This document shows positions 3,236 through 16,306 of a stretch of DNA of 24,000 nt, in pieces (within the stretch, counting starts at the first letter, position 1; each line of letters starts with the position of its first letter). The DNA lies in assembly GCA_002279065.1 (NCBI GenBank), contig NCKB01000005.1, positions 280,727 to 304,726 of the forward strand, in the 5' to 3' direction. The stretch comes from Lysobacterales bacterium 15-68-25 (lineage in GTDB: Bacteria > Pseudomonadota > Gammaproteobacteria > Xanthomonadales > Rhodanobacteraceae). The notes under the pieces were generated by a model. The model searched no databases and had not been told where the DNA came from. It saw only the letters and a list, made by a program, of their open reading frames with translations. Made by a program: the position numbers and the translations under genes.

Positions 3236-5971
3236 ATGGCCGACATCAGCCGCAGCGCCCTCTTCGGCAAGCTCAACAAACTCGCCTACCGGGGCATCGA
3301 GAGCGCCACCGTCTTCTGCAAGCTGCGGGGCAACCCGTACATCGAGCTGGTGCACTGGATCCACCAGATCCTGCAGCTGCAGGATTCGGACCTGCACCAC
3401 ATCGTCAAGCAGTTCAACCTCGATCCGTCCAACCTGGTGCGCGACGTCACCGACGCGCTGGACCGCCTGCCGCGCGGCTCCACCAGCATCTCGGATATCT
3501 CCAGCAACGTGGAAGAGGCGGTCGAACGCGCCTGGGTGTTCGCCACGCTGATGTTCGGCGAGGCGCAGGTGCGTACCGGTTACCTGATCGTCGGCATCCT
3601 GCAGACGCGCAGCCTGCGCAACGTGCTGGTGGGTATCTCCAGGGAGTTCGAGAAGATCAAGCTGGAGACGTTGACCGACCGCTTCGAGGAGGTGGTCGCC
3701 GGTTCGCCGGAGAACAACCAAGCCGCCTCGGACAGCTTCAGGATGGGCGGCGCCGTGCCCGGCGAGGCCAGCGGCGCGATGGGGCCGGCGCAGATGGGCA
3801 AGCAGGAGGCGCTGCGCCAGTTCACCGTCGACCTCACCGAGCAGGCGCGCAGCGGCAAGCTCGATCCCATCGTCGGCCGCGACGACGAGATCCGCCAGGT
3901 GGTCGACATCCTGATGCGGCGCCGGCAGAACAACCCGATCCTGGTCGGCGAGGCCGGCGTGGGCAAGACCGCGGTGGTGGAAGGCTTCGCCCAGCGCATC
4001 GTGCGCGGCGACGTGCCGCCGTCGCTGAAAGAGGTGGAGCTGCGCGTGCTGGACGTGGGCCTGCTGCAGGCCGGCGCCAGCATGAAGGGTGAGTTCGAGC
4101 AGCGCCTGCGCTCGGTGATCGAGGAAGTGCAGGCCAGCCCGAAGCCGATCATCCTGTTCGTCGACGAGACCCACACCCTGGTCGGTGCCGGCGGCGCGGC
4201 CGGCACCGGCGACGCGGCCAACCTGCTCAAGCCGGCGCTGGCGCGCGGTACCCTGCGCACCATCGGCGCCACCACCTTCGCCGAGTACAAGAAGCACATC
4301 GAGAAGGACCCCGCGCTGACCCGCCGCTTCCAGACCGTGCAGGTCGACGAGCCGAGCGAGGAGAAGGGCATCCTGATGATGCGCGGCGTCGCCAGCGTGA
4401 TGGAGAAGCATCACCGCGTGCAGATCCTCGACGAGGCGCTGGAGGCGGCGGTGAAGCTGTCCCACCGCTACATCCCCGCGCGCCAGCTGCCGGACAAGGC
4501 GGTCAGCCTGCTCGACACCGCCTGCGCCCGCGTCGCGGTGAGCCAGCACGCGGTACCGCCGGAAGTGGACGACACCCGCAAGCGCATCGAGGCGCTGGAG
4601 ACCGAGCTGGCGATCATCCATCGCGAGAAGACCGTCGGTGTCGACGTGGCCGAGCGCGAGGCCTCGGTCAACCAGAAGCTGGCCGTCCAGCGCGAACGGC
4701 TGGAGAAGGTTGAGGCCGATTGGGCCGCCGAGAAGGTGCTGGTGGGGCAGATCCTCGCCATCCGCGCCAGGCTGCGCGGCGACAGCGCACCGGTCGAGGG
4801 GACCGGCAGCACGCTGGAAGCTTCCGCCGAAGCCACGGCGCTGGCCGAGGATCCCGCTACCGCCGTCGAGTTCGACGACGTGGCCCGCGCCGCGGCACTG
4901 GAAGAACTGAAGACCCTGCAGGCCCGGCTCGCCGAGCTGCAGGGCGAGAACCCGCTGATCCTGCCGACCGTGGACATGGTCGCCGTCGGTGCGGTGGTCT
5001 CGGACTGGACCGGCATCCCGGTCGGCCGCATGGTCAAGAGCGAACTCGAGACCGTGATGAACCTGGCCGGCCTGATGGGCAAGCGGGTGATCGGCCAGGA
5101 CCACGCGATGGAGATGATCGCCAAGCGCATCCAGACCTCGCGCGCCGGCCTGGACAACCCGAACAAGCCGATCGGCGTGTTCATGCTCGCCGGCACCTCC
5201 GGCGTGGGCAAGACCGAGACCGCGCTGGCACTGGCCGAGGCGCTGTACGGCGGCGAGCAGAACGTCATCACCATCAACATGAGCGAGTTCCAGGAGGCGC
5301 ACACCGTCTCCACACTCAAGGGCGCGCCTCCGGGCTACGTCGGCTACGGCGAGGGCGGCGTGCTGACCGAGGCGGTGCGGCGCAAGCCGTATTCGGTGGT
5401 GCTGCTGGACGAGGTGGAGAAGGCCCATCCGGACGTGCACGAGATCTTCTTCCAGGTGTTCGACAAGGGCGTCATGGAGGACGGCGAAGGCCGTCGCATC
5501 GACTTCAAGAACACCCTGATCCTGCTCACCACCAATGCCGGTACCGACATGATCGCCAGCATGTGCAGCGATCCGGAGCTGATGCCCGACCCGGAGGGCA
5601 TGGCCAAGGCGCTGCGCGATCCGCTGCTGAAGATCTTCCCGCCCGCGCTGCTGGGCCGCCTGGTGACCATCCCGTACTACCCGCTCAGCCCGACCATGCT
5701 CGGCGAGATCGTCAAGCTGCAGCTCAACCGCATCAAGAAGCGCATCGAAGGGCGCTACAGGATCCCGTTCGAGTACGGCGACGACGTGGTCAAGCTGGTG
5801 GTCGAGCGCTGCACCGAGAGCGAATCCGGTGGCCGCATGATCGACGCCATCCTCACCAACTCGATGCTGCCGGACATCAGCCGGGAGTTCCTCAACCGGA
5901 CGATCGAGGGCAAGCCGATCGAGAAGGCGAGTGTCGGCGTGAAGGACGGTGAGTTCAGTTACGCATTTTGA
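3236..5971 (+). CDS. clpV: T6SS AAA+ ATPase ClpV (TssH), 911 aa
   Basis: ClpV-type N-domain: LFGKLNKLAYRGIESATVFCKLRGNPYIELVHW. Two AAA+ modules are present. Walker A1 is GEAGVGKTA with Walker B1 ILFVDETH; Walker A2 is GTSGVGKTE with Walker B2 VVLLDEVEKAH. AAGGA at 3222-3226 lies 9 nt before the ATG. Confidence 0.97.
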   Translation: MADISRSALFGKLNKLAYRGIESATVFCKLRGNPYIELVHWIHQILQLQDSDLHHIVKQFNLDPSNLVRDVTDALDRLPRGSTSISDISSNVEEAVERAWVFATLMFGEAQVRTGYLIVGILQTRSLRNVLVGISREFEKIKLETLTDRFEEVVAGSPENNQAASDSFRMGGAVPGEASGAMGPAQMGKQEALRQFTVDLTEQARSGKLDPIVGRDDEIRQVVDILMRRRQNNPILVGEAGVGKTAVVEGFAQRIVRGDVPPSLKEVELRVLDVGLLQAGASMKGEFEQRLRSVIEEVQASPKPIILFVDETHTLVGAGGAAGTGDAANLLKPALARGTLRTIGATTFAEYKKHIEKDPALTRRFQTVQVDEPSEEKGILMMRGVASVMEKHHRVQILDEALEAAVKLSHRYIPARQLPDKAVSLLDTACARVAVSQHAVPPEVDDTRKRIEALETELAIIHREKTVGVDVAEREASVNQKLAVQRERLEKVEADWAAEKVLVGQILAIRARLRGDSAPVEGTGSTLEASAEATALAEDPATAVEFDDVARAAALEELKTLQARLAELQGENPLILPTVDMVAVGAVVSDWTGIPVGRMVKSELETVMNLAGLMGKRVIGQDHAMEMIAKRIQTSRAGLDNPNKPIGVFMLAGTSGVGKTETALALAEALYGGEQNVITINMSEFQEAHTVSTLKGAPPGYVGYGEGGVLTEAVRRKPYSVVLLDEVEKAHPDVHEIFFQVFDKGVMEDGEGRRIDFKNTLILLTTNAGTDMIASMCSDPELMPDPEGMAKALRDPLLKIFPPALLGRLVTIPYYPLSPTMLGEIVKLQLNRIKKRIEGRYRIPFEYGDDVVKLVVERCTESESGGRMIDAILTNSMLPDISREFLNRTIEGKPIEKASVGVKDGEFSYAF

Positions 5972-6069
5972 TCGTCGCGTGGCGCGGGAGTGATGCCGGC
6001 AGGGGCGGAAGGGCCGCCCGGGTTGCCTTGGTCCCGATCCGGGGCGTCGATGTCAGCGAGGATGGCGTG

Positions 6070-6663
6070 ATGTTTCAGCGTAGATTCGAGGGGTTCTCTC
6101 AGCAGCAGCAGAGCGTCATTGCGGCCGCGTGCGACGGAATGCAACAGCGTGCGGCCCGTTCGCTTGATCAGGGCGCTCCGATCGCCGCGTGGTTTGGGGC
6201 GGCGGACAGGAATCAGGTGTTTCTCAAGCTGCGCATGATGCAGAACGTGATTCAGGATGGTTCGCGGACCGTCACGTTCGTCAATCGCACCGGCAAGAAG
6301 ATCGGTGTGACGCATACGGACGTCTATACCAAGCATCTCAATCCGGTCGGCCAGGAGACCCCGCTGCAGGGGTCGGGGATCGTCGCCTACGCCTTTCCGG
6401 TCGATCGCCGCTACGGAGATCCCGGGCCGCATTCCACGGTGTCCCATGTCGGGAGCGGGATGCGCATCTACCTGAATGACGTGTTTTTCACGCTCGACCC
6501 GGTGCTTCAGGCGGCGACGATCTATCACGAGATGACGCACAAGGTTCTGGCCACGAACGATCACTGCTACGACCCGGTGGCCTGCCGGATGCTGGCGGCG
6601 AGGAATTCGGCGCAGGCACTCGATAACGCGGACAACTTCGCGCACTACATAGCCAATTGCTGA
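6070..6663 (+). CDS. Aspzincin / M35-like (peptidyl-Lys metalloendopeptidase-like) zinc metallopeptidase, ~197 aa, no signal peptide
   Basis: HEMTH (HExxH) is encoded at 6526-6540. Nine residues later comes ATNDHCYD (6550-6573), which fits the aspzincin third-ligand motif GTxDxxYG. The C-terminal NADNFAHYI resembles the NADsyaxf end of M35-like domains. I prefer ATG 6070 (MFQRRFEGFSQQQQSVIAAACDG...) over the track start at 5968. The latter overlaps the clpV stop and adds an Arg/Gly-rich 34-aa leader. Confidence 0.8.
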   Translation: MFQRRFEGFSQQQQSVIAAACDGMQQRAARSLDQGAPIAAWFGAADRNQVFLKLRMMQNVIQDGSRTVTFVNRTGKKIGVTHTDVYTKHLNPVGQETPLQGSGIVAYAFPVDRRYGDPGPHSTVSHVGSGMRIYLNDVFFTLDPVLQAATIYHEMTHKVLATNDHCYDPVACRMLAARNSAQALDNADNFAHYIANC

Positions 6664-6813
6664 GGCGAAGGCGTCTTGATGGCCCTCCTGTCCAGAGCAG
6701 GGGCGCCGATCGGAATTTGCCGTGGATGTCGGGGACATGCGTGCCGGAAGCTGCTCCGAAGAATCAGGCGGTCTCCAGAAATATGACTTTCCCGACCAAG
6801 CGGAGAATGCATC

Positions 6814-7563
6814 GTGTGTCAGTTCGGTACCAATGGGATCATTTCGAATCCAAACGCCCCGCGGCCGACCCAGGCCGCTTCCGGATTCGCGTGCTACGGA
6901 GCCTTGGCGCTCGCCCAGATCGACAGCACGTGCGGCTCGCTGCGAGAGAGGAATCAGCGGTACTACAACATCGGAAAGCCGACCGGAGCGGTGCCTGGCA
7001 TCGCGGTTCCGCTCGCTTGTCATCACGTCATTGGTTGGGACGTCATCTGGGGCTTCTGGAATGCTTTGATCGCCAGCGGCGACTTCAAGAAAGCGCGGGC
7101 TTATCTGGCGATCTGCGGCGTGGCGCAGACCGAGACGGCCAAGCTGGAAAAGCAGGTCAAGAGCAACTCGTTCCAGGCAGGCCCGAACTGGGACGCAAAG
7201 CTCTGCTGGAATCCGATCAATCTCGTTCGGGGGCCTGAAGATCGGTCGGATGATCCCAATGGACTGCCCACGCCTCGCGAGAAGATCGACTTCAAGCTGG
7301 CGCCGTCGGATGTCTACGGCGGTCGCGTGGCCAAACTGGTCGAGACCGGAAACGCGATGTGCGACTACATGGACGCGCCAAGGAACACGGCGAAGGCGGA
7401 AAAGGCGATTCAGTATCTCAGGACCATCCGGGCAGAGCCGATCATGGAATGGGACGAGTCGCTCTGGGTGGTGGACAAGACCCGGCCCGGTTATTCGAGC
7501 ACGGCTGCGCCCGGTGGCGGATTTCTCGTCGTGCGGCCTACCTGGAAGATCGTCAACAGCTGA
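6814..7563 (+). CDS. Hypothetical protein, 249 aa, Trp-rich, no recognisable domain
   Basis: GTG start at 6814 with GGAGA at 6802-6806. The frame shows G/C-preferring third positions but island-type codon usage. No signal peptide or TM segment is visible. The only two His residues are in ...PLACHHVIGWDVIWGFWN.... Confidence 0.7.
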   Translation: MCQFGTNGIISNPNAPRPTQAASGFACYGALALAQIDSTCGSLRERNQRYYNIGKPTGAVPGIAVPLACHHVIGWDVIWGFWNALIASGDFKKARAYLAICGVAQTETAKLEKQVKSNSFQAGPNWDAKLCWNPINLVRGPEDRSDDPNGLPTPREKIDFKLAPSDVYGGRVAKLVETGNAMCDYMDAPRNTAKAEKAIQYLRTIRAEPIMEWDESLWVVDKTRPGYSSTAAPGGGFLVVRPTWKIVNS

Positions 7564-7671
7564 AGAGTTCATCGTCAGCCGCGCCGGGGCGACAAGGCCA
7601 TCGGCGATCGCAGTGACCGGGGCCGCAGTGAAGGCGGCTTCGTTCGACAAGGGTGGTTGCGGGGTTCTTAC

Positions 7672-7677
7672 AGGAGG
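7672..7677 (+). promoter_or_regulatory. Shine-Dalgarno sequence AGGAGG, 7 nt upstream of ATG 7685
   Basis: The sequence reads cttacAGGAGGacgactgATG. This is the strongest SD match I saw in the window, and it fixes the start of the deaminase-fold gene well inside the 7250..8434 track ORF. Confidence 0.7.
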
Positions 7678-7684
7678 ACGACTG

Positions 7685-8434
7685 ATGGCGAGATGCCCGG
7701 AATGCCGAGAAAACCTGACCATCGACGGGATCGGCCATGCCCGGGGCTGTTCCCGCCGCCGCGGCCGCGCGCGCCTCTCGCCGGCGCAGGCGGAGGAGCA
7801 GCGTGAGGAGCGCAGGTTGCAGGAAATGGCCCAGCGCGAGCGCGAGGCGGAGCGTCGCCGCCAGATCGTCGCAAGCACCAGGGCCGCGCTGCTGGATACA
7901 GCGCCTGTCACGAGTTCGAGCCGCTCCGCTCTGGATGACGTCGCCTACAACATCCACAACGCCTATGACTGGCAGGGTCGCGCGGATCAGTGCGTCACCG
8001 CCGTCGTTCGCAAGAGCAACGGGCGTTACGTGGTGTTTGCCCAGCGGTTCATGACCGTCATGGAGGAGTACGGCAGCCGCCACTATGCCGACCATCAGCT
8101 GTCATTCAAGCCCGGTGGAGGCGCGCATCTGCATGCCGAGATGTACGCAGTGCTGCATTACCTGCAGCGCGGAAAGCATCCTGGCCGGGAAATCGAGCGC
8201 ATCGGGGTGAGCAAGCCGATCTGTCCGTTGTGCCGGGCCGTGCTGATCCATCTCGGTATTCGCTTCACGGAGGGGTGGGTCACAACCGAGCCCAGCACCC
8301 ACTGGAGCGACCCGTGGAGCCTGCTGCCGGCAACGTGCAAGCCGCCGGTCAATCCGTGGCGAAAGGACGCCGATCCCGACGAGGACGCCGGAGGAGATGG
8401 CGGCGGCCTCCACGGCACGTCGATCAGGGTCTGA
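7685..8434 (+). CDS. Nucleic-acid/nucleotide deaminase-fold protein (cytidine-deaminase-like superfamily, OTT_1508-like signature), 249 aa; candidate T6SS toxin
   Basis: HAE is encoded at 8132-8140 (aa 150-152). SKPICPLC at 8210-8233 places the first Cys 28 residues after the Glu. This is the H[AC]E...(P)CxxC zinc-binding signature of the deaminase fold. The IGVSKxxCxxC form is what I remember for the OTT_1508-like clade. The N-terminus has C4-x2-C7...H18-x3-C22, a possible zinc knuckle. It is followed by an Arg/Glu-rich predicted helix (RRRGRARLSPAQAEEQREERRLQEMAQREREAERRRQ). Confidence 0.75.
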   Translation: MARCPECRENLTIDGIGHARGCSRRRGRARLSPAQAEEQREERRLQEMAQREREAERRRQIVASTRAALLDTAPVTSSSRSALDDVAYNIHNAYDWQGRADQCVTAVVRKSNGRYVVFAQRFMTVMEEYGSRHYADHQLSFKPGGGAHLHAEMYAVLHYLQRGKHPGREIERIGVSKPICPLCRAVLIHLGIRFTEGWVTTEPSTHWSDPWSLLPATCKPPVNPWRKDADPDEDAGGDGGGLHGTSIRV

Positions 8435-8650
8435 GGCGCGCTCGCATCGGTCGGGTCGGCCGACAGGAGCGGCGCCCTGACGGCTGACAGGAATTCCCCT
8501 CCGTTCACGCACTACCGATTGACAGGACTGCATCGCTCTCCCCTTCAGAGGGCGTTCGCCGGGATGGCATCAGCGGGTTGGATGTCCGGGCCAGGCCCCG
8601 GACGCTTGGTGCGATATGGCGTCGTCGACGCCTGGACTGGCGGGGGAACC

Positions 8651-8959
8651 ATGAACAGCGAACACGCACGTGCAGGCGGCTCGTTGCCATCGGGGCGGCG
8701 GCAGCCGAGGCGCGGTCGTGTCCGCGCCTTGGCGGTGGCGAACGTGCTCGCGGCCGACATCGACATGCCCGGCCGGATGGGGCGGGTCGAGGCGATGAAG
8801 CAGCAGCGGATGGAGCCGCTGGGCAAGATCGCGACCAGGAGCCTCGCCCCCTCGTGCCTGCAACTGGAGGGTCTGCCCTCGGACGATGGCCCGCACGTGG
8901 AGAAAGGCTTCGTCGCCGGCGTCAGGAGCAAGGCGCACAGGCAGTTGCATCTTTCCTGA
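8651..8959 (+). CDS. Candidate small ORF (~102 aa), unannotated; possible immunity gene; strand and start uncertain
   Basis: By hand count, 89 of 102 codons end in G or C in this frame, which is a strong coding-type signal for this genome. GGGGGA precedes ATG 8651. The track ORF 8519..8959 starts at a TTG, and GC3 is weaker before 8651. One caveat is that the antisense ORF 8545..8991 shares the same third positions, so the signal does not settle the strand. The plus-strand peptide looks more protein-like, but no motif is recognised. Confidence 0.3.
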   Translation: MNSEHARAGGSLPSGRRQPRRGRVRALAVANVLAADIDMPGRMGRVEAMKQQRMEPLGKIATRSLAPSCLQLEGLPSDDGPHVEKGFVAGVRSKAHRQLHLS

Positions 8960-9054
8960 CGGGCACGGCAGTCCGCATCTGCGGGCGGCACCCACGTCGA
9001 ATCACTTTGCGGGGAATGTCCGGCGCGGCGCCGGCTTTCCCGGGGAACATTTCC

Positions 9055-9558
9055 ATGAGAGTCAAGCTTGTCAGCCCGTCGGCCGATCTGTCGCTACCCG
9101 AATACTGCGTGGGTCAGGCATCCAGGACATGCGTCTATCCGGGCATCGCGCAGTGCTTCGCGATCGCCGGCTGGACCAAGGGCGGGATGCTCTGCACCCA
9201 CGTCAGCCCCGGTGCGACCAGCGAAGAGATGGCTGCCACCTTCGAGCACCTGCGGAACCTGGGCGGCGACCAGGCGCAGCGCTGGTACGTGGTGGGTCCA
9301 TTCACGGAACACTTCGCCGTGACCAAGGCGCAATGGCGCTCGGTCGAGGCGATCAAGAAGACCTTCAAGCAGTTGAAGAACAAGAATGCCGAGCGCTGGA
9401 TCCTCGACGTCACCGCCGAACGCCAGGCCTTCAGCTGGGGCATCGACATCCAGTCCACGCCTTGCGACTGGGCGCCGGTGATCTATTTCGACTACAGGAA
9501 GTGGGGCTCGAAGGGCGGCTGGACCGACCTGAAAGTCCACAAGTTCGTCCGCTTCTGA
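9055..9558 (+). CDS. Hypothetical protein, 167 aa, with a CheD-like Cys...His arrangement (possible deamidase/cysteine hydrolase fold)
   Basis: Real gene by GC3 and length. Start ATG 9055 is preferred, with GGGGA about 8 nt upstream; the upstream part of track ORF 8578..9558 is Arg-rich junk. The peptide GIAQCFAIAGWTKGGMLCTHVSPG has Cys34 (9154-9156) and His49 (9199-9201). It resembles the CheD consensus lGSCvavxlxDxxxxigGmaHxmLP as I remember it. The size (~160 aa) and a later segment (VEAIKKTFKQL...ILDVTAERQAFSWGIDIQS) also parallel CheD family layout. Confidence 0.7.
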   Translation: MRVKLVSPSADLSLPEYCVGQASRTCVYPGIAQCFAIAGWTKGGMLCTHVSPGATSEEMAATFEHLRNLGGDQAQRWYVVGPFTEHFAVTKAQWRSVEAIKKTFKQLKNKNAERWILDVTAERQAFSWGIDIQSTPCDWAPVIYFDYRKWGSKGGWTDLKVHKFVRF

Positions 9559-9773
9559 TCGCCGGCCTCCCCACTGCATCCGCAGATGGAGTACTTCACG
9601 AATGGAAGCGCAGATGCGGGAGTCACGAGCATGCCGGGCGCCTTGCGCGTGTTCCGTAACAGATCGGGGAGCTTTCCAGTGCGTTGGCGAGGGAGAGCAC
9701 GTCGACGCGGCTCCCCGCGATTCGAAGATCAACTTTTCCCGTTTTTCGATCCATCCATCCGAGGCGAACGATC

Positions 9774-10211
9774 ATGAAACGACTGGCCAAGGCAACCGGA
9801 GCCGGACTTCGGCACTTCTTCGGGGCGCGCGAGAGCATCAGCCAGCAGAAGAACCTGGCGCGACAGTTCAAGGCCGCCGATACGCGGGTCAGCAAGACGA
9901 AGATTCTCGCCGTCATGGGCATGTATGCCGTGTACAAGGGGTCGCCGATCGGACTGGGCAAGAACATCGCCGACAGCATCAAGGTCGGGCGATGGAAGCA
10001 CAGCGACCTGAAACGCCAGCAGGAAGAGGTGGATGCCTTGCTTGCCGGCACCGGGATGTCGCCGCAGGGCATCGCCGCCGTGTCGCGACTGGTTCGCCAG
10101 GGCGCCTCGGGCGATGAGGTCTACGCCAACCTGTCTCCGAACGACGCGCAGATACTCGCGGGCATCGAGAACGATCTGCATGTCCAGGCAGGTCACTGCG
10201 TGAACTTCTGA
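9774..10211 (+). CDS. Hypothetical protein, 145 aa, no recognisable domain
   Basis: ATG 9774 is preceded by GAGG at 9761-9764; the track start at 9684 adds an Arg/Ser-rich leader. The peptide is MKRLAKATGAGLRHFFGARESISQQKNL...; it is mostly helical and charged, with no signal peptide. Confidence 0.6.
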   Translation: MKRLAKATGAGLRHFFGARESISQQKNLARQFKAADTRVSKTKILAVMGMYAVYKGSPIGLGKNIADSIKVGRWKHSDLKRQQEEVDALLAGTGMSPQGIAAVSRLVRQGASGDEVYANLSPNDAQILAGIENDLHVQAGHCVNF

Positions 10212-10579
10212 ACCTCCGGCCGGGCGGTCTCCGGAGCCGGGGCGTCCAGTACCCGGTGGCCATGGGGCTGGCCGCCGCCTCGGTCGGGTCGGCGGCAGCC
10301 GGCCGGACGGATGCCCGCGGCGTGCCTGATCCTGCCGGACTGTATCGAAAGAGCCTGCAGTGAGGGCTGTCCGTGGCCGGCGGGCCGGCCCCTTCCTCCA
10401 CGGGACGAGCGGGATGATCAAATCCACCTGCCTTTTACGCACCTAACCATGGAGCGCCATGCCGGCCCGGTTGCGGAGCGGTGTCGCGGCGCGCAGCCAG
10501 GGGGAGGTGCCGGATGTCCCAGTCGTACCGTTCGCTTGCACTTGCCGCGCGCCGCGACGCGCGCGCGGAGCGCTGAGCC

Positions 10580-10870
10580 ATGCCGCAGCCGGCCGCGCGC
10601 CTGACCGACATGCACGTCTGCCCGATGGTGACGGGGGTGGTGCCCCACGTAGGCGGTCCGATCACCGCCCCCGGCAAGCCGAACGTGCTGATCGGTGGGC
10701 TGCCTGCTGCCCGCCTGGGCGATATGGCGACGTGCGTCGGGCCGCCGGACTCCATCGTGATGGGGGCGCCCACGGTGCTGATCGGTGGGCAGCCGGCGGC
10801 GCGGCTGGGGGACAGCTGCGCCCACGGCGGCACGATCGTGCTGGGCTGCTTCACCGTGCTGATCGGTTGA
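10580..10870 (+). CDS. PAAR-domain spike-tip protein, 96 aa, no extension domain
   Basis: Three PAAR-type repeats are present: QPAARLTDMHVCP, GLPAARLGDMATC and GQPAARLGDSCAHGG. The length is typical of a stand-alone PAAR. GGAG at 10567-10570 lies 9 nt before the ATG. Confidence 0.95.
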   Translation: MPQPAARLTDMHVCPMVTGVVPHVGGPITAPGKPNVLIGGLPAARLGDMATCVGPPDSIVMGAPTVLIGGQPAARLGDSCAHGGTIVLGCFTVLIG

Positions 10871-10880
10871 GGAGGATTCG

Positions 10881-12269
10881 ATGCGATCCGCGACCCGGGC
10901 CATGCCATCACGCCGCAAGCGGCGGCCGCCGCAGCCGTCCGATCCCGCCTTTGCCGGTCTGCTGCAGGAGGCCATGCGCGCCCATCAGTCCGGTGACCTG
11001 GATACGGCAGAGCGCCTGTACGGCGAGGTGCTGGCGCTGCATGCCGCCCAACCGGACGCGCTGCATTTCCTCGGCGTGCTGGCCCACCAGCGCGGCCGCA
11101 GCGACGAGGCGGTGCTGCTGATCAGTTCGGCGCTGAAGATCGTTCCCAGGCATCCGGACGCGCACAACAACCTGGGCAACGTGCACAAGGAATGCGGACG
11201 GCTGGCCGACGCCGAGCGCTGCTACCGCAAGGCGCTGGCCTGTGGACCGGAGCATTACCAGGCGCAGAGCAACCTGGCCGTGGTGCTGGAGGCGCAGGAG
11301 CGCCTGGACGACGCCTTCGAGGCGTATTCGAAGCTGATCGCGCAGGCGCCCACCTACGCGCACGGCTACTACCGGCTCGGCCTGTTCCTGCGCAACTACG
11401 CCCAGAGCGAGGAGCACCTGGAGCAGTCGGCGGAATGCTTCCGCGAATCCTTTCGCCACGATCCGGCCAACGTGCGCGCACTGGAGGGCGTGGGCGTGGC
11501 GCTGTACATGCTCCATCGCCACGACGAGGCTGCGGAGGTCTACCGCCAGTGGCTGGAGCGCGAGCCGGACAACCCGGTGCCGCGTCACATGCTGGCGTCC
11601 TGCGGCGCCGCCGAGGCACCGCCGCGTGCCGCCGACGACTATGTGCGCGACGTCTTCGACGGCTTCGCCGAGAGCTTCGACGAGCAGCTGATCCAGAACC
11701 TCGGCTATCGCGCGCCTGAGGTGCTGGTCGGCATGCTGGACGAGGTGACGCCGATTGCCGGCGCGACGCTCGACGTGCTCGACGCCGGATGCGGTACCGG
11801 CCTGTGCGCACCGCTGCTGCGCGCGCGGGCGCGCCGCCTGGTGGGCGTGGACCTGTCCGGCGGCATGGTCGACAAGGCGCGGCTGCGCGGTGGCTACGAC
11901 ACGCTGGAGGTGGCCGAGCTCACCGCCTGGCTCGAGGCCCATCCGCGCTCCTTCGACCTGGTCGTCTCGGCCGACACGCTGGTCTATTTCGGCCAGCTCG
12001 GCCCGGTACTCGCCGCCGCGTCTGGCGCGCTGCGCGCGGGCGGCTGGGTGGGCTTCACCCTGGAAGCCACGGAGGGCGAGGCCGAGGTGGCCGAGCTCAC
12101 CTCCAGCGGCCGCTACCGGCATTCGCGCCCCTACGTCGAGCGCGTGCTCGCGGACAGCGGCTTCGAAGCTGTCACCGTGCGCGGCGACACGCTGCGGCGC
12201 GAGGCCGGCAAACCCGTACACGGCTGGGTGGTCCGCGCCCGCCGGTGCGTTCCCCAAGACGGCGCCTGA
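10881..12269 (+). CDS. TPR-repeat protein fused to a class I SAM-dependent methyltransferase, 462 aa
   Basis: The N-terminal half has several 34-aa TPR-like units (AERLYGEVLALHAAQPDALHFLGVLAHQRG, AHNNLGNVHKECGRLADAERCYRKALACGP, and others). The C-terminal half has SAM motif I LDVLDAGCGTGL (from 11769), post-I VGVDLS, and FDLVVSADTLVYF. It starts 10 nt after the PAAR stop and ends 23 nt before vgrG. Confidence 0.9.
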   Translation: MRSATRAMPSRRKRRPPQPSDPAFAGLLQEAMRAHQSGDLDTAERLYGEVLALHAAQPDALHFLGVLAHQRGRSDEAVLLISSALKIVPRHPDAHNNLGNVHKECGRLADAERCYRKALACGPEHYQAQSNLAVVLEAQERLDDAFEAYSKLIAQAPTYAHGYYRLGLFLRNYAQSEEHLEQSAECFRESFRHDPANVRALEGVGVALYMLHRHDEAAEVYRQWLEREPDNPVPRHMLASCGAAEAPPRAADDYVRDVFDGFAESFDEQLIQNLGYRAPEVLVGMLDEVTPIAGATLDVLDAGCGTGLCAPLLRARARRLVGVDLSGGMVDKARLRGGYDTLEVAELTAWLEAHPRSFDLVVSADTLVYFGQLGPVLAAASGALRAGGWVGFTLEATEGEAEVAELTSSGRYRHSRPYVERVLADSGFEAVTVRGDTLRREAGKPVHGWVVRARRCVPQDGA

Positions 12270-12292: not shown

Positions 12293-14350
12293 ATGGCCCA
12301 CGCGATCACCGTTACCTGCGATGTCGAGAGCACCCTGCTGTTCGTGCGCATGCGTGCCACCGAGGGGCTCGGCCAGCTGTTCTCGTACGAACTGCAACTG
12401 CTCAGCGAAAACGCCGAAGTCGACCTGCTCAAGCTGCTCGGCAAGCCGATGGCGGTGAAGCTGGTCGACGAGGACGGCACCACCCGCTACTTCCACGGCA
12501 TCGTCGCGGAGGCCGAGCAGACCGGCTTCGAGACGATCTCCAAGGTGCGCTATGCCGCCTACCAATTGCAGCTGGTGCCAAAGCCCTGGCTGCTGTCGCA
12601 GAAGGTCGATTGCCGCATCTACACCGAGATGGATGTGCCGTCGATCGTCAAGGCGGTGCTCGGCGACATCGGCTATGCCGACGTCAAGCTGAGCCTCACC
12701 GGCAACTATCCGCAGCGCGACTACTGCGTGCAGTACCGCGAGAGCGGCCTGAACTTCATCAGCCGGCTGATGGAGCAGGAGGGCATCTACTACTTCTTCA
12801 CCCATGCGGCCAACGCGCACACCCTGGTGCTGGCCGACGCGCTGGGCGCGCACGCGGCGACCAGTGGCTTCGAGCACGTGCCGTACTGCCCGCCGACCCA
12901 GCGCGGCGGACGCCAGGCCGGCTCGATGTCGCAGTGGCGCAGCGCCGGGCAGGTGCATTCGCTCAAGGTGCAGCTCACCGACTACAACCCGCTCACGCCC
13001 AAGGCCTCGCTGCTCGGCACCGCGACCCTGAGCGGCTCGGAGTACCACGGTGTCGGCGGGCTGGACGTGTTCGACTACCCCGGGCCGCACGACAACGCGT
13101 CGGACGGCAAGCGGTATGCGCAGGTGCAGGTCGAGGCCCGGAACGCATTGCACAAGGCATTCCACGGGCAGACCGACGCCTTCGGGATCGCCTGCGGCGC
13201 GCTGTTCACCCTGCAGGACTTTCCGTTGCAGGCGCTCAACCGGGAATACCTGATCACCCGGACCATCATCGAGCTGGCCGATCCCGGCTACTACGGCGGC
13301 GCGGACGCGGGCCAGGAGCCGTTCCGCTGCGAACTGCAGGCGATCCCCAGCAGCCAGCCGTTCCGCAGCCTGGCCACGGCGGCCAAGCCGCGCATCGCCG
13401 GCCTGCAGACGGCGGTGGTCTGCGGCAGCGACACCGACGAGGACATCGCGGTGGACAAGTACGGCCGCGTGCAGGTGACCTTCCCCTGGAACAAGCCGGA
13501 CAAGCCCGAGGCCAAGAGTTCCTGCCCGGTGCGGGTGGCCTCGCCCTGGGCCGGCAAGAACTGGGGCGCGGTGAGCATTCCGCGCGTCGGGCAGGAAGTG
13601 GTGGTGAGCTTCCTCGAGGGCGATCCCGACCGGCCGCTGATCATCGGCAGCGTCTACAACGCCGACAACATGCCGCCGTACTCGCTGCCGGACAACAAGA
13701 CCCAGTCCGGCGTGAAGACGCGCAGCCTGCTCGGCGGCACCGACGACGCCAACGAGCTGCGTTTCGAGGACAAGAAGGGTTCCGAGCAGTTCTTCATCCA
13801 CGCGCAGAAGGACATGCTCGAGGAAGTCGAGAACGACCACACCGTCACCATCGACCACGACGAGACGGTGACGGTGAAGAACGACCAGAAGCTCACCGTC
13901 AACCACGATCAGACCATGGAGGTCGGCAACGACCAGACCGAGACGGTCAAGCACGATCGCAAGATCACCGTGCAGAACGACGACACCCTCGACGTCACCG
14001 CCAACGGCACCACCAGCATCGGGCAGAAGTTCAAGCTCAGCGCGGGCACCGAGATCGAGCTGGTCACCGGCGCGTCCAGCATCACCATGAAGAGCGACGG
14101 CACGATCGAGATCAAGGGCGTCAACATCAAGATCACCGGCGACGTCGGCGTGAAGATCGAGGGTCAGGTGGAAGTCGGCATCAAGGCCGGCGCCACCATG
14201 GATCTGGGCGCCGGCGCGAGCCTTAAGGCGCACTCGGACGCCATGCTGGAAGTGGCCGGCAGCGCGATGACCACGGTCAAGGGCGCGATGACCACCATCA
14301 AGGGCGACGCGATGACCCAGGTCTCCGGCTCAATCATCATGATCGGCTGA
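12293..14350 (+). CDS. vgrG: T6SS spike protein VgrG, 685 aa, no C-terminal effector domain
   Basis: From ATG 12293 the peptide reads MAHAITVTCDVESTLLFVRMRATEGLGQLFSYELQLLSEN.... The gp27/gp5 modules follow (RVASPWAGKNWGAVSIPRVGQEVVVSFLEGDPDRPLIIGSVYN). A C-terminal beta-helix repeat then runs to the stop (HTVTIDHDETVTVKNDQKLTVNHDQTMEVGNDQTETVKHDRKITVQNDD...). The upstream part of track ORFs 11755/11789 is out-of-frame methyltransferase sequence. Confidence 0.95.
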   Translation: MAHAITVTCDVESTLLFVRMRATEGLGQLFSYELQLLSENAEVDLLKLLGKPMAVKLVDEDGTTRYFHGIVAEAEQTGFETISKVRYAAYQLQLVPKPWLLSQKVDCRIYTEMDVPSIVKAVLGDIGYADVKLSLTGNYPQRDYCVQYRESGLNFISRLMEQEGIYYFFTHAANAHTLVLADALGAHAATSGFEHVPYCPPTQRGGRQAGSMSQWRSAGQVHSLKVQLTDYNPLTPKASLLGTATLSGSEYHGVGGLDVFDYPGPHDNASDGKRYAQVQVEARNALHKAFHGQTDAFGIACGALFTLQDFPLQALNREYLITRTIIELADPGYYGGADAGQEPFRCELQAIPSSQPFRSLATAAKPRIAGLQTAVVCGSDTDEDIAVDKYGRVQVTFPWNKPDKPEAKSSCPVRVASPWAGKNWGAVSIPRVGQEVVVSFLEGDPDRPLIIGSVYNADNMPPYSLPDNKTQSGVKTRSLLGGTDDANELRFEDKKGSEQFFIHAQKDMLEEVENDHTVTIDHDETVTVKNDQKLTVNHDQTMEVGNDQTETVKHDRKITVQNDDTLDVTANGTTSIGQKFKLSAGTEIELVTGASSITMKSDGTIEIKGVNIKITGDVGVKIEGQVEVGIKAGATMDLGAGASLKAHSDAMLEVAGSAMTTVKGAMTTIKGDAMTQVSGSIIMIG

Positions 14351-14361
14351 CGGAGGCGCAC

Positions 14362-14901
14362 ATGTCGGCAGTCATTCACGCCTCGGTCCAGATGGAGCTT
14401 CCGACGGAAGCCAACGCCGTGCTTCGCGCGGAGATGACTCCGCAGGCGGCGGTGCAGGCGCTGCTCGCTGCGGGCCGTTCGCAGGACGCGCTCAAGCTGC
14501 TCGCCCGCCTGTTGCCCAAGCGCTACGCGGTGGCATGGGTGTGCCAGTGCGCGCGCGAGCAGCTGCTCACCCAGGAGGATCGCGCCGGCGCCTCGCTGGC
14601 TGAGCAGTGGGTGCGCGAGCCGAGCGAGAGCAATCGGCGCGCCGCGTTCGAGTTCGCCCATGCCGGCGGCTACCGGTCGCTGGGCGCATGGATCGCCGCC
14701 ACGGCCGGCTGGTCCGGCGGCAGCCTCGCACCGGCCACGCAGGAGACGGCGGTGCCACCGCCCGAGCATCTCACCGCGCGCGCCGCGGTGGCGGCGATCA
14801 ACCTGATGGCGGCGCTGGAGCCGGCCGAATTCGATGCCCGGCGCACCGCCTTCATCGAACGCGCGGCCAACCTGTTGCAGGCCGGGGGAGGGGAGGCATG
14901 A
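14362..14901 (+). CDS. Hypothetical protein, 179 aa, T6SS-associated by position only
   Basis: GGAGG at 14352-14356 lies 5 nt before ATG 14362, and the gene starts 11 nt after the vgrG stop. It is Ala/Leu-rich and helical (LLAAGRSQDALKLLARLLPKRYAVAWVCQCAREQLL). No signal peptide or lipobox, so it is not TssJ. I cannot assign a family with confidence. Confidence 0.7.
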   Translation: MSAVIHASVQMELPTEANAVLRAEMTPQAAVQALLAAGRSQDALKLLARLLPKRYAVAWVCQCAREQLLTQEDRAGASLAEQWVREPSESNRRAAFEFAHAGGYRSLGAWIAATAGWSGGSLAPATQETAVPPPEHLTARAAVAAINLMAALEPAEFDARRTAFIERAANLLQAGGGEA

Positions 14902-14959
14902 ACCGTTGCCCCATCCTTCCCGGTCGGCCCGCCTTCCGTCACGAAGAGGAGCGCTGAGC

Positions 14960-16306
14960 GTGTCGTCGATTCCCACCCTGGTCCTGGCCGTCACCGGCGT
15001 GCATGCGGCGCAGTTCGGCGCGCGCGGACGCAAGGCCTTCGAAGGACACGACGGCAGCATCGGCCGCTCGGAGGATTGCGACTGGGTGCTGAGCGCGTCC
15101 GGCGTATCGCGCGTGCACGCGATGATCCGCTGCCTCAACGGCATCTATTTCATCGAGGATCGCAGCACCAACGGGATGCTGCTCAATGGCGTGCCGTTGA
15201 TGAAGGGCGAGCCGTCCGCGCTCAAGGACGGCGACCGCCTGCAGATCGACACCTTCGAGGTGTCGGTCAGCGTGCAGGCAGCGGGAGCTGCCGCGCCGCC
15301 CGCGCCGGTGCCGTCGCCGCAGGACGTGTTCGCCACCTCGTTGCTGCCGCCGGTCGCAGCCGTGCCGATGGGGCGCGATCCGCTGGACGACTTTCTGGAC
15401 CTGGGCCTGGGTCCGGTGTCCCGGCCGCCGGTCGATGCCGGCCTGATTCCGGACCCGGTGGCGCCGGCGGGCGGCTCGCTCGATCCGCTGAGTTTCCTCG
15501 ACGAGCCGTTCGCTCCGGTACCCGTACCGACGCCGGCCGCGCCGTCGCCGGGCTGGAACCATACGCCCGGCATGTCCGACCACTTCCATCCGCCAGCACC
15601 GGAAGGCCAGCGGGCCAGCCAGATGCTGCCGGAGAACTGGGACCTGACCATCGGCGATTTCGGCGCTCCGGCCGCTGCGCCCGCGTTCGCTCCGGCACCT
15701 GCACCGGCCCCGGCCCCGGTAGCCCCTGCGCCAGCGGCGTGGGCGCCACCGACGACGATGCCTGCCGCGCCCGCCGGCAGCCCGATGCCTGCGGACGTCC
15801 AGCAGATGCTGGCCATCGTGGTCGATGGGGTGATGGACGTGCTGCGCGCGCGCGCGGAGATCAAGAACACCTTCCGCCTGCCGGTGACGATCATCCAGCG
15901 CTCGGAGAACAACCCGCTGAAGTTCGCCCCGAACGCGGACGAGGCGCTGCAGAAGATTCTCTCGCCGCCGAACGCCGCGTTCCTGTCCGGGCCCTCCGCA
16001 TTCGACGACGCCTTCGACGACATCCGCTGCCACCAGATGGCGATGCTCGCCGGCGTCCGCGCGGCGTTCGAATCGCTGCTGGCGCATTTCAGCCCCGACC
16101 GCTTCGAGCAGGAGGCCGACGGCGGCAAGCGCTCGGCGTTCGCCGGCAAGGGGCGCTACTGGGAGAAGTACCGCGAGCATTTCGAAGGGCTGGCGAAGAA
16201 CCCCGACGAATGCTTCCGCCGCCTGTTCGGCGACGAGTTCGCGCGGGCCTACGAAGAACAGCTGGCGCGCCTGAAGTCGGCGCGCCGCAACGCCGCGCGG
16301 CGATGA
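14960..16306 (+). CDS. tagH: T6SS-associated FHA-domain protein TagH (Fha), ~448 aa
   Basis: GTG 14960 is preceded by GAAGAGGAG at 14944-14952. The FHA core is GSIGRSEDCDWVLSASGVSRVHAMIRCLNGIYFIEDRSTNGMLLNG. A Pro/Ala-rich linker follows, then a conserved TagH C-terminal region (LAIVVDGVMDVLRARAEIKNTFRLPVTIIQRSENNPLKF). Confidence 0.9.
   Translation: MSSIPTLVLAVTGVHAAQFGARGRKAFEGHDGSIGRSEDCDWVLSASGVSRVHAMIRCLNGIYFIEDRSTNGMLLNGVPLMKGEPSALKDGDRLQIDTFEVSVSVQAAGAAAPPAPVPSPQDVFATSLLPPVAAVPMGRDPLDDFLDLGLGPVSRPPVDAGLIPDPVAPAGGSLDPLSFLDEPFAPVPVPTPAAPSPGWNHTPGMSDHFHPPAPEGQRASQMLPENWDLTIGDFGAPAAAPAFAPAPAPAPAPVAPAPAAWAPPTTMPAAPAGSPMPADVQQMLAIVVDGVMDVLRARAEIKNTFRLPVTIIQRSENNPLKFAPNADEALQKILSPPNAAFLSGPSAFDDAFDDIRCHQMAMLAGVRAAFESLLAHFSPDRFEQEADGGKRSAFAGKGRYWEKYREHFEGLAKNPDECFRRLFGDEFARAYEEQLARLKSARRNAARR
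15664..15750 (+). repeat. Pro/Ala-rich low-complexity linker inside tagH
   Basis: It encodes APAAAPAFAPAPAPAPAPVAPAPAAWAPP. Similar P/A tracts occur at the tssL N-terminus (about 17850-18000) and in the tagF extension (about 23515-23600). These are disordered linkers, not a nucleotide repeat element. Confidence 0.6.

Follow-up and report, generated by a model that had tools for sequence, protein, structure and literature searches.

What do the genes do that separate clpV from the PAAR and vgrG spike genes in the cluster for a type VI secretion system (T6SS) in Lysobacterales bacterium 15-68-25? They lie at positions 5972–10579 of the 24-kb stretch of DNA that we analyzed, in the following called the window. 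A first-pass annotation of this DNA had pointed out that vgrG normally follows clpV directly, which is true for the Pseudomonas relatives that we fetched: in these H1-type loci, vgrG starts 83–275 nt past clpV. We regard the stretch as probably the variable cargo region of an H1-like i3 T6SS in Rhodanobacteraceae; its small proteins would be exported as effectors, and for three of them, termed B, C and E below, the targets are probably eukaryotic. Variability of the clpV–PAAR junction is established by comparison with related genomes, and genes of the A, C and E type recur at this junction in other clusters. As judged from their sequences and, for E, from the predicted fold, the three intact enzyme genes A, C and E credibly belong to toxin-type families.

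We took the gene order of the cluster from public gene calls on the parent contig with Pfam domains. It reads extracytoplasmic function (ECF) sigma factor, tssB, tssC, hcp, tagJ (ImpE), tssE, tssF, tssG, clpV, the island in question, PAAR, TPR/methyltransferase, vgrG, DUF6931, tagH (FHA), tssK, tssL-OmpA and tssM. The calls comprise VipA, VipB, Hcp, ImpE, GPW_gp25, TssF, TssG and ClpV, i.e., tagJ and the order tssE-tssF-tssG-clpV are present, and FHA plus T6SS_FHA_C domains (TagH) were found at 14834–16306. Moreover, as in group-3 clusters, a TPR/methyltransferase gene follows PAAR and a DUF6931 gene follows vgrG, both in the window and in its relatives. The cluster hence has the H1-like i3 layout, which is the "group 3" of Xanthomonadales (PMC6653060). 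The window ClpV is 83–87% identical to ClpV of Rhodanobacter and Dyella (86–87% for Rhodanobacter) and about 74% identical to that of the Pseudomonas relatives, which places the organism in the Rhodanobacteraceae.

The "variable region" of Xanthomonadales group-3 T6SS clusters was described in 2019 by Bayer-Santos et al. (PMC6653060), and the stretch is therefore not a new kind of feature. In that study the region of X. citri, which includes EcfK and PknS, spans about 15.6 kb, whereas Dyella has about 5.2 kb and X. oryzae about 2.2 kb, and genes of unknown function are conserved downstream of PAAR and of vgrG (PMC6653060). The window agrees with this description in tagJ, tssE-F-G-clpV, FHA and an upstream ECF sigma factor, in the conserved genes after PAAR and vgrG, and in segment size, which is similar to that of Dyella. 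It differs in that its gene content is not shared with the compared genomes and that, unlike in X. citri, no EcfK/PknS pair lies inside the region, the ECF sigma gene being located upstream of tssB. No functions are assigned to the Dyella-type cargo in PMC6653060. The stretch and its open reading frames (ORFs) are as follows.

5972–10579, + strand: probable variable cargo region of the i3/Xanthomonadales group-3 T6SS cluster, with lower G+C and contents that differ among relatives
6070–6663, + strand: A, predicted M35/aspzincin-like zinc metallopeptidase, 197 aa (Pfam Aspzincin_M35, HEMTH, ATNDHCYD)
6814–7563, + strand: B, orphan protein of 249 aa from a rare unannotated family, candidate toxin domain (rarity, eCIS_core fusions, viral fold matches)
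7685–8434, + strand: C, predicted OTT_1508-clade nucleic-acid deaminase, 249 aa (Pfam OTT_1508_deam, clade signatures)
8651–8959, + strand: D, 3' remnant of a 335–415-aa cargo gene, 102 aa (alignment to C-terminal ends only)
9055–9558, + strand: E, predicted Cys-His amidohydrolase with CNF1/CheD/NTAN1 fold, 167 aa (AlphaFold2 and Foldseek)
9774–10211, + strand: F, conserved small PAAR-linked protein, 145 aa (synteny across loci)

The six co-oriented ORFs, which were delimited by frame analysis and G+C at third codon positions (GC3) together with two independent public gene calls, agree with the five or six genes anticipated in the first-pass annotation. The lower G+C of the island between clpV and PAAR was likewise borne out. 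G+C is 64.7% in the stretch compared with 68.5% in the left and 70.0% in the right flank, and among windows of 4.6 kb, the one with the lowest G+C in all 24 kb (63.7%) begins at 5436 and largely overlaps the stretch. Codon composition follows the same trend, with GC3 of 0.77–0.87 in the six island ORFs versus 0.87–0.94 in all eleven core or conserved genes. The dip had been exaggerated by hand counting, however: instead of 50–63%, 400-nt windows have 60.5–70% G+C. Intergenic gaps of the island are indeed larger than those of the core (95–368 nt versus -37 to 166 nt), but the range of 120–620 nt given earlier does not hold, as the 620 nt correspond to the distance from C to E and contain ORF D.

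Pfam and NCBIfam confirmed the earlier statement that the island encodes neither a core T6SS component, nor an adaptor of the DUF4123, DUF1795 or DUF2169 type, nor a mobility gene such as an integrase or transposase. Meaningful direct or inverted flanking repeats were not found, and Rfam gave no match in the stretch (tRNA genes were not scanned); borders of a mobile element were hence discarded as an explanation. No promoters or terminators above chance were found in the large gaps, and none of the six proteins matched PADLOC or PHROGs. The proposed piecemeal acquisition is compatible with the remnant D and with the mosaic content; a mobility signature was not found.

To assess how the junction varies, we compared 80 clpV loci from GTDB genomes with 10-kb flanks. 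The frame of clpV followed by PAAR, TPR/methyltransferase and vgrG (and DUF6931 and tagH) is kept in seven of them, i.e., Rhodanobacter aciditrophus (L003), Rhodanobacter sp. KK11 (L004), Rhodanobacter sp. C06 (L005), Dyella nitratireducens (L006), D. choica (L008), Xanthomonas sp. AmX2 (L012) and a mislabelled contig (L070). In these seven loci, the clpV–PAAR segment measures 2.0–5.6 kb, the gene set differs in each, and the segment has lower G+C than its own locus in every case. The six proteins of the window are almost absent from them. Exceptions to this non-sharing are a C homologue in AmX2, parts of longer proteins that match D, and distant relatives of A in two metagenome-assembled genomes (MAGs) of Burkholderiales. 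Variable cargo at a conserved junction, as the first-pass annotation had proposed, was thus confirmed, and the contrary case of the same genes at this place in all relatives was not observed.

At the junction the relatives carry Lipase_3 with DUF6795, Peptidase_M91, Peptidase_C58, an EEP phosphatase/nuclease, HNH, a Tsi1-like protein, Muramidase and a Ser/Thr kinase. That recombination turns over the content is suggested by the reduced G+C and GC3, by the gene remnant D and by the different gene set of each related genome. In several metagenomic strains, the island was found entire at ≥90% identity. The same DNA is present in the NCBI MAGs "Lysobacterales bacterium 14-68-21" and "Xanthomonadales bacterium 15-68-25", whose annotation gives the island genes as hypothetical proteins.

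ORF A matches the Pfam family Aspzincin_M35 (PF14521) with an E-value of 2.9e-12 and 47.6 bits (cut-off 30), whereby only the C-terminal half of the profile is covered. It has a HEMTH zinc site and the Asp motif ATNDHCYD, both as expected for M35, and we therefore predict a peptidase. Weak sequence matches in the PDB were the peptidyl-Lys metalloendopeptidase 1g12 and AsaP1 (2x3a), and one NCBI MAG annotates A as "M35 family metallo-endopeptidase". A 339-aa protein encoded past clpV in an Aquabacterium MAG (L026) shares 26% identity with A over its C-terminal two-thirds, and A-type genes are T6SS-linked in L026, L021 and L076. In L026 and in L021 (Pelomonas), an A-like gene is followed by a gene for a 143-aa lipoprotein with signal peptide and lipobox, the M35 gene being full length in L026 and a 71-aa remnant in L021. 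This lipoprotein gene is absent beside A in the window. The start of A is ambiguous, since one public call begins at TTG 5968 (231 aa, overlapping the clpV stop) and another at ATG 6070 (197 aa), the start used here. The L026 protein aligned too weakly upstream of ATG 6070 to decide on the extended N-terminus.

ORF C matches OTT_1508_deam in Pfam (9.8e-8, 32.3 bits, cut-off 27). Signatures of this clade are H-x-E and P-C-x-x-C, a GxxK before the CxxC, and a later loop with a polar residue, usually His, and aromatic-x-x-P (PMC3239186). With HAE, GVSK-PICPLC and THWSDP, C shows all of them, and it is hence a predicted deaminase of the OTT_1508 clade. Its substrate could be C in DNA, C in RNA or A in RNA. 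A 67% identical homologue lies directly past clpV in Xanthomonas sp. AmX2, where the neighbours on both sides differ from those in the window. OTT_1508 deaminases are located directly past clpV also in X. euvesicatoria (L043) and several genes downstream in L087, so that four clusters including the window have them at the junction. A Xanthomonas member of the clade was already listed by Iyer et al. in 2011; OTT_1508-like toxins are often found without immunity genes and were predicted in silico to target eukaryotic hosts (PMC3239186). Fungal OTT_1508-like proteins edit A to I in mRNA, and the Neurospora deaminases of this type act in antiviral RNA editing (PMC12754623).

The N-terminus of C (7685–7810) contains a CxxC-x11-H-x3-C motif followed by an Arg/Glu-rich segment, and both are kept in the Xanthomonas homologue (L012, 12794–12900). 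Another post-clpV protein (L087, 8682–9332, 216 aa) combines an N-terminal CxxC..CxxC with the deaminase-like motifs CAE and PCxxCC. The CxxC-type N-terminus may be a shared module for loading or nucleic-acid binding.

For ORF E, AlphaFold2 gave a model with a predicted local distance difference test score (pLDDT) of 95.5 and a predicted template-modelling score (pTM) of 0.91. Foldseek aligned this model in the PDB with NTAN1 (6a0f, 4e-4) and CheD (2f9z_C, 4.2e-4) at template-modelling (TM) scores of 0.47 and 0.50, both with probability 1.0, and with CNF1 (1hq0) at 3e-2 and probability 0.47. These three proteins have the CNF1/YfiH-like cysteine hydrolase fold. His49 is invariant and Cys34 present in ≥90% of 33 homologues, and the model places them in strands 35–41 and 44–50, as a predicted catalytic pair. 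All three catalytic-looking motifs reported for the island at first pass, i.e., those of A, C and E, are accordingly present; only the spacing in E had been misread, and Cys-x15-His should be C-x14-H. E homologues are found in the post-clpV variable region of R. fulvus Jip2 (L083), of L087 and of L101, so that four of five contexts, including the window, are T6SS-linked. Neighbours of E differ between L083, L087 and the window. A T6SS effector with a CNF1 domain has been documented, V. proteolyticus Vpr01570 (PMC13577199).

By eye we noticed an E-like strand-hairpin motif "G-C-[STA]...x14-16...H" in unrelated-looking cargo of L003, L043, L087 and L092. Examples are L003_g1_186, L003_g4_344, L092_349, L087_177, L087_217 and a 164-aa protein beside the deaminase in L043. 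Such proteins were not confirmed as E paralogues, as hhalign was not significant for two of them and BLAST was negative for a third.

ORF D is a gene remnant. Its residues 28–102 align at 57% identity with the last 75 residues (263–337) of a protein from Rhodanobacter sp. KK11 (L004_g2), and D also aligns with residues 264–333 of an Aquabacterium MAG protein (L026_g4). Proteins of this type (335–337 aa) are encoded in post-clpV islands and have distant relatives of 415 aa in two further Rhodanobacter genomes. Upstream of D, nothing matches the rest of the 335–337-aa protein. Because only the last 67–75 residues of that protein align, we conclude that D is a 3' remnant, which shows directly that genes have been replaced in the region. 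An alternative ORF on the minus strand (8545–8991) was rejected, as GC1>GC2 and the stronger tblastn match favor the + strand.

ORF B is a member of a very rare family: only 18 clusters turned up among 5.8 billion proteins, and a profile search across 1.8 billion representatives yielded 174 relatives. In three of 149 relatives, the B domain is C-terminal and preceded by an N-terminal eCIS_core/DUF4157, and the other 146 are without this fusion. DUF4157/eCIS_core N-terminal to toxin domains is the architecture of toxins associated with extracellular contractile injection systems (eCIS; Geller et al. 2021, PMC8213781). The AlphaFold2 model of B (pLDDT 82) found no fold match in the PDB, including none to the ribosome-inactivating protein fold. 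In BFVD, it matched Q06VL9 (4e-7) and an APSE-4 "putative Shiga-like toxin alpha subunit" (3e-4, TM 0.46), and further predicted proteins of baculoviruses, granuloviruses and entomopoxviruses. The "Shiga-like" label in APSE is itself merely putative (PMC7313666). Invariant motifs are LACHHV.GWD..FWN and LCW.P.N.VRGP..R.DDP. We considered an AHH/HNH-type nuclease because of the "HH..WN..N..GP" motifs, but no Pfam match was obtained in 15 close or 149 distant members, and PDB fold and profile searches were empty as well. No match to B was obtained with tblastn in phage genomes. A protein directly past clpV in the mislabelled contig (L070_g1_318) could not be assigned to the family, since hhalign aligned 13 columns only and hmmsearch was negative. 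Elsewhere B is flanked by ECF sigma genes in a Polyangiales MAG or lies within a prophage-like stretch, by a GDSL lipase, by glycosyltransferases and by an IS66 element, and it stands alone wherever the neighbours in other contexts are known. We therefore regard B as a candidate toxin domain that is not T6SS-specific.

ORF F differs from the other genes by its conservation. We found 40 homologues with 54–96% identity and a mean column identity of 67%; Pfam, PDB, PADLOC and PHROGs gave no match. In 11 further loci, F always lies within a T6SS cluster of the window's type, i.e., directly upstream of PAAR in L092/L096/L097, L093, L095, L100/L102 and L101, past clpV in L098 and L099, and close to tssB in L091. 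The distance from F to PAAR is 13–46 nt in the majority, about 290 nt in L095 and 368 nt in the window. The gene before F varies (an M91 peptidase, a small deaminase-like protein with CAE..CxxC, or E), and PAAR regularly follows. As F tracks PAAR whatever gene precedes it, F is, judging from synteny, a semi-conserved accessory of the spike module and not variable cargo.

How might these genes work together? In the reading that we prefer, the variable region sits between clpV and a conserved spike module of (F)-PAAR, TPR/methyltransferase, VgrG and DUF6931, recombination would turn over its content, and the current cargo would consist of the enzymes A, C and E, each small and with a single domain, and of the orphan toxin-like protein B. 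These four proteins would be exported as T6SS cargo effectors. Their likeliest route is inside the Hcp tube, like the small Tse effectors of the P. aeruginosa H1 system; they might alternatively be loaded on the spike with help of the conserved F, TPR or DUF6931 proteins. We consider the Hcp-lumen route most economical because the proteins are single domains of 16–28 kDa without PAAR or VgrG fusion or known adaptor, in an H1-homologous system. Once delivered, the enzymes would act on the target cell, which in the case of at least C, E and B is probably eukaryotic (a protist). The location and variability of the stretch, the family and fold assignments and the lack of conserved partners come from the analysis itself, while export, loading route and target are inferred. 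A eukaryotic target is probable since no conserved immunity gene neighbors the cargo, i.e., no shared neighbor or bicistron was found for B, C or E among their homologues, and since the X. citri T6SS, the closest system studied, acts against amoebae rather than bacteria: it provides resistance to Dictyostelium but no killing of bacteria (PMC6653060), and a 2026 review still gave its effectors as undetermined (PMC13577199). The predicted CNF1/NTAN1 fold of E, the immunity-less OTT_1508 clade of C, the APSE- and eCIS-like features of B, and the YopT-like C58 and NleD-like M91 peptidases of the relatives make such targets plausible.

Several findings weigh against this reading. In A–F, Pfam detected no DUF4123, DUF1795 or DUF2169 adaptor, no MIX or FIX motif, and no fusion to PAAR, VgrG or Hcp. 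For B, no activity could be assigned, and of its five other contexts four are non-T6SS and one is ambiguous, i.e., a recurrent T6SS linkage was not found; occurrence mainly outside T6SS contexts had been named at first pass as an argument against the cargo reading, and for B it applies. For E, fold matches are moderate (TM 0.35–0.50 across matches, 0.47–0.50 for the best two), no Pfam match to CheD or CNF1 families was obtained at E≤0.1, a profile of 33 homologues found nothing among PDB sequences, and one homologue, in Sulfitobacter, lies among housekeeping genes. Moreover, antibacterial-type cargo occurs at the junction of relatives (a Tsi1-like gene in D. choica, lipase, muramidase), and the 143-aa lipoprotein beside A-like genes looks like a periplasmic immunity protein. 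The junction hence carries antibacterial cargo too, and the anti-eukaryotic reading is not general. Of the multi-effector arsenal suggested by the first-pass annotation, A, C and E thus stand as credible toxin-type enzymes, whereas D is a remnant, F an accessory, and B found mostly outside T6SS.

One might read the six genes as three antibacterial effector–immunity pairs A/B, C/D and E/F, like classical T6SS bicistrons, as the co-oriented genes alternate in size with the enzyme-like ones at positions 1, 3 and 5, and relatives do hold antibacterial-type pairs at the junction (Tsi1-like in L008, A-like gene plus lipoprotein in L026 and L021). Yet no proposed partner co-occurs with its effector elsewhere: B is alone in other contexts with known neighbors, D corresponds merely to the last ~70 residues of a 335–415-aa protein, F follows a different gene at each locus and is regularly followed by PAAR, and the C homologue in L012 has unrelated neighbors. 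By sequence, B, D and F are also without signal peptide. Having found no conserved partner, a fragment in D and a PAAR follower in F, we rejected the pairs as improbable. Somewhat less improbable, although still rather unlikely, are non-secreted passengers, i.e., a recombination-permissive gap that collects acquired or decaying genes. Lowered G+C and GC3, the remnant D, the sporadic occurrence of B by IS66 elements and prophage-like genes and the E homologue in a housekeeping context would fit, and the X. citri variable region holds the regulators EcfK and PknS, not effectors alone (PMC6653060). Against passengers speak the intact catalytic motifs of A, C and E and their conserved frames with high GC3, the presence of OTT_1508 deaminases at the junction in four clusters and of E likewise in four, the conservation of the island at ≥90% identity in several metagenomic strains, and the recognized effector families in the cargo of relatives. 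It is for B that the passenger explanation is most credible.

That some or all genes are accessory or regulatory parts of the machine, for assembly, spike loading or post-translational control, is credible for F only and has little likelihood for the island as a whole. F has a well-conserved sequence and nearly always abuts PAAR, CheD-type deamidases regulate chemotaxis (cf. the 2f9z match of E), and regulators are contained in the X. citri variable region of this T6SS group (PMC6653060). But A, B, C and E are missing from most clusters with the same core and so cannot be required, and even F was not found in the closest Rhodanobacter and Dyella genomes. Far less likely than any of these is an anti-phage defence islet of deaminase, peptidase and nuclease-like genes inside the T6SS cluster. 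Deaminases and HNH-like motifs do occur in defence systems too, and the Neurospora deaminases mentioned above act in antiviral RNA editing (PMC12754623), but PADLOC recognized none of the six proteins, a sensor, NTPase or typical partner domain is lacking among them, and it is specifically the clpV–PAAR interval of T6SS clusters in which the families reappear. Both a defence islet and a prophage fragment were hence discarded, given the empty PADLOC and PHROGs searches and the missing tblastn match of B in phage genomes.

The cargo reading can be extended, tentatively and with well less than even chances, to an immunity-less anti-protist arsenal of an X. citri-type i3 T6SS. It would comprise, for injection into eukaryotic predators, an OTT_1508 deaminase that possibly edits RNA, a minimal deamidase of CNF1/CheD fold and a toxin fold common to eCIS, APSE and insect viruses, with F as a hitherto unrecognized PAAR partner that aids loading. 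If true, these would be the first concrete effector candidates for an anti-amoeba class of T6SS. The X. citri system, which protects against amoeba predation, is the only studied T6SS of the subgroup, and the junction in Rhodanobacteraceae supplies a short list of candidates. As a free-standing OTT_1508 deaminase, C is possibly of interest as a base-editing enzyme; other candidates are the putative minimal CNF1/CheD-fold amidohydrolase and the unannotated toxin-like family common to eCIS and APSE cargo, and F beside PAAR may bear on the loading of small cargo. A variable lower-GC effector slot in a T6SS cluster is well established, even for group 3, and the value of the locus therefore lies in the particular genes and not in the principle.

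Known effector systems share some of these properties. The H1-T6SS effectors Tse1–4 of P. aeruginosa are small, Hcp-borne, antibacterial proteins that are encoded outside the cluster beside immunity genes. The island genes resemble them in the homologous core operon and as small single-domain proteins (16–28 kDa) without PAAR, VgrG or adaptor association, but lie inside the cluster and have no conserved immunity partners. The T6SS toxins DddA and SsdA fall into other deaminase clades; each forms the C-terminal domain of a large polymorphic toxin that comes with an immunity protein. C shares deaminase motifs (HAE, PCxxC) with them and with the OTT_1508 clade; unlike DddA and SsdA, it is free-standing with 249 aa and has a short Zn-knuckle-like and Arg-rich N-terminus. 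The OTT_1508 clade was predicted to include immunity-less toxins in eukaryote-associated bacteria (PMC3239186). E has the Cys...His pair and, as predicted, also the fold in common with CNF1 deamidases, CheD and NTAN1, but differs from CNF1-type effectors as a minimal protein of 167 aa without delivery or receptor domains. The Cys...His spacing in CNF1 is x14, as in E. In three relatives, the B domain follows eCIS_core at the C-terminal "toxin" position, as in eCIS toxins (PMC8213781), and its fold resembles an APSE-4 protein from the APSE toxin cassettes; unlike the eCIS toxins, B itself lacks eCIS_core and is located in a T6SS cluster.

The genes and the spacer that border the ORFs of the island are the following.

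3236–5971, + strand: clpV (TssH), left border, 911 aa (AAA/ClpB domains of Pfam, from the public gene call)
10212–10579, + strand: F–PAAR spacer, 73% G+C, with a 35-nt block at 10413–10447
10580–10870, + strand: PAAR spike-tip protein, right border (Pfam PAAR_motif, 3.1e-26)
10881–12269, + strand: TPR and S-adenosylmethionine (SAM)-methyltransferase protein between PAAR and vgrG (Pfam TPR, Methyltransf_11/25)
12293–14350, + strand: vgrG (TIGR03361 7e-178, Phage_GPD; start as in the public gene call)
14362–14901, + strand: DUF6931 protein after vgrG (Pfam DUF6931, 3.7e-43; position kept in relatives)

In the F–PAAR spacer, the 35-nt block GATGATCAAATCCACCTGCCTTTTACGCACCTAAC (10413–10447) is kept in the closest metagenomic relative L095, though the flanking spacer has diverged. 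The block might serve as a local promoter or operator, but the spacer shows no consensus of a promoter or terminator. As a general regulatory site it was dismissed, being absent from all loci except L095.

Copies of the TPR/methyltransferase protein, 36–79% identical, lie beside PAAR or vgrG in Xanthomonadales and in many Burkholderiales clusters. It is this gene that PMC6653060 describes as conserved downstream of PAAR and of unknown function. DUF6931, a domain scarcely mentioned in the literature, is encoded beside PAAR instead in some Methylococcales and other loci, and possibly represents a candidate spike-associated adaptor, as judged by its position.

The ECF sigma factor gene just upstream of tssB lies outside the window (2001–2570 in L001/L002) and recalls the EcfK-dependent regulation of the X. 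citri T6SS. A PknS-like kinase was not seen in the window; one is encoded in the variable region of Xanthomonas sp. AmX2 (L012, 15281–18028), and also in L087 and L098. A Lipase_3 protein of about 385 aa after a DUF6795 protein of about 130 aa forms a recurrent two-gene module in L004, L009, L021 and L093, either in the variable region or just past PAAR, and looks like a Tle-type effector with its partner. Finally, the mislabelled contig L070 (JAHREJ010000002.1), deposited as Bacillus subtilis subsp. subtilis SK7B5, carries a proteobacterial T6SS cluster of 69% G+C with a ClpV 74% identical to that of the window, and is almost certainly a contamination of the SK7B5 assembly.

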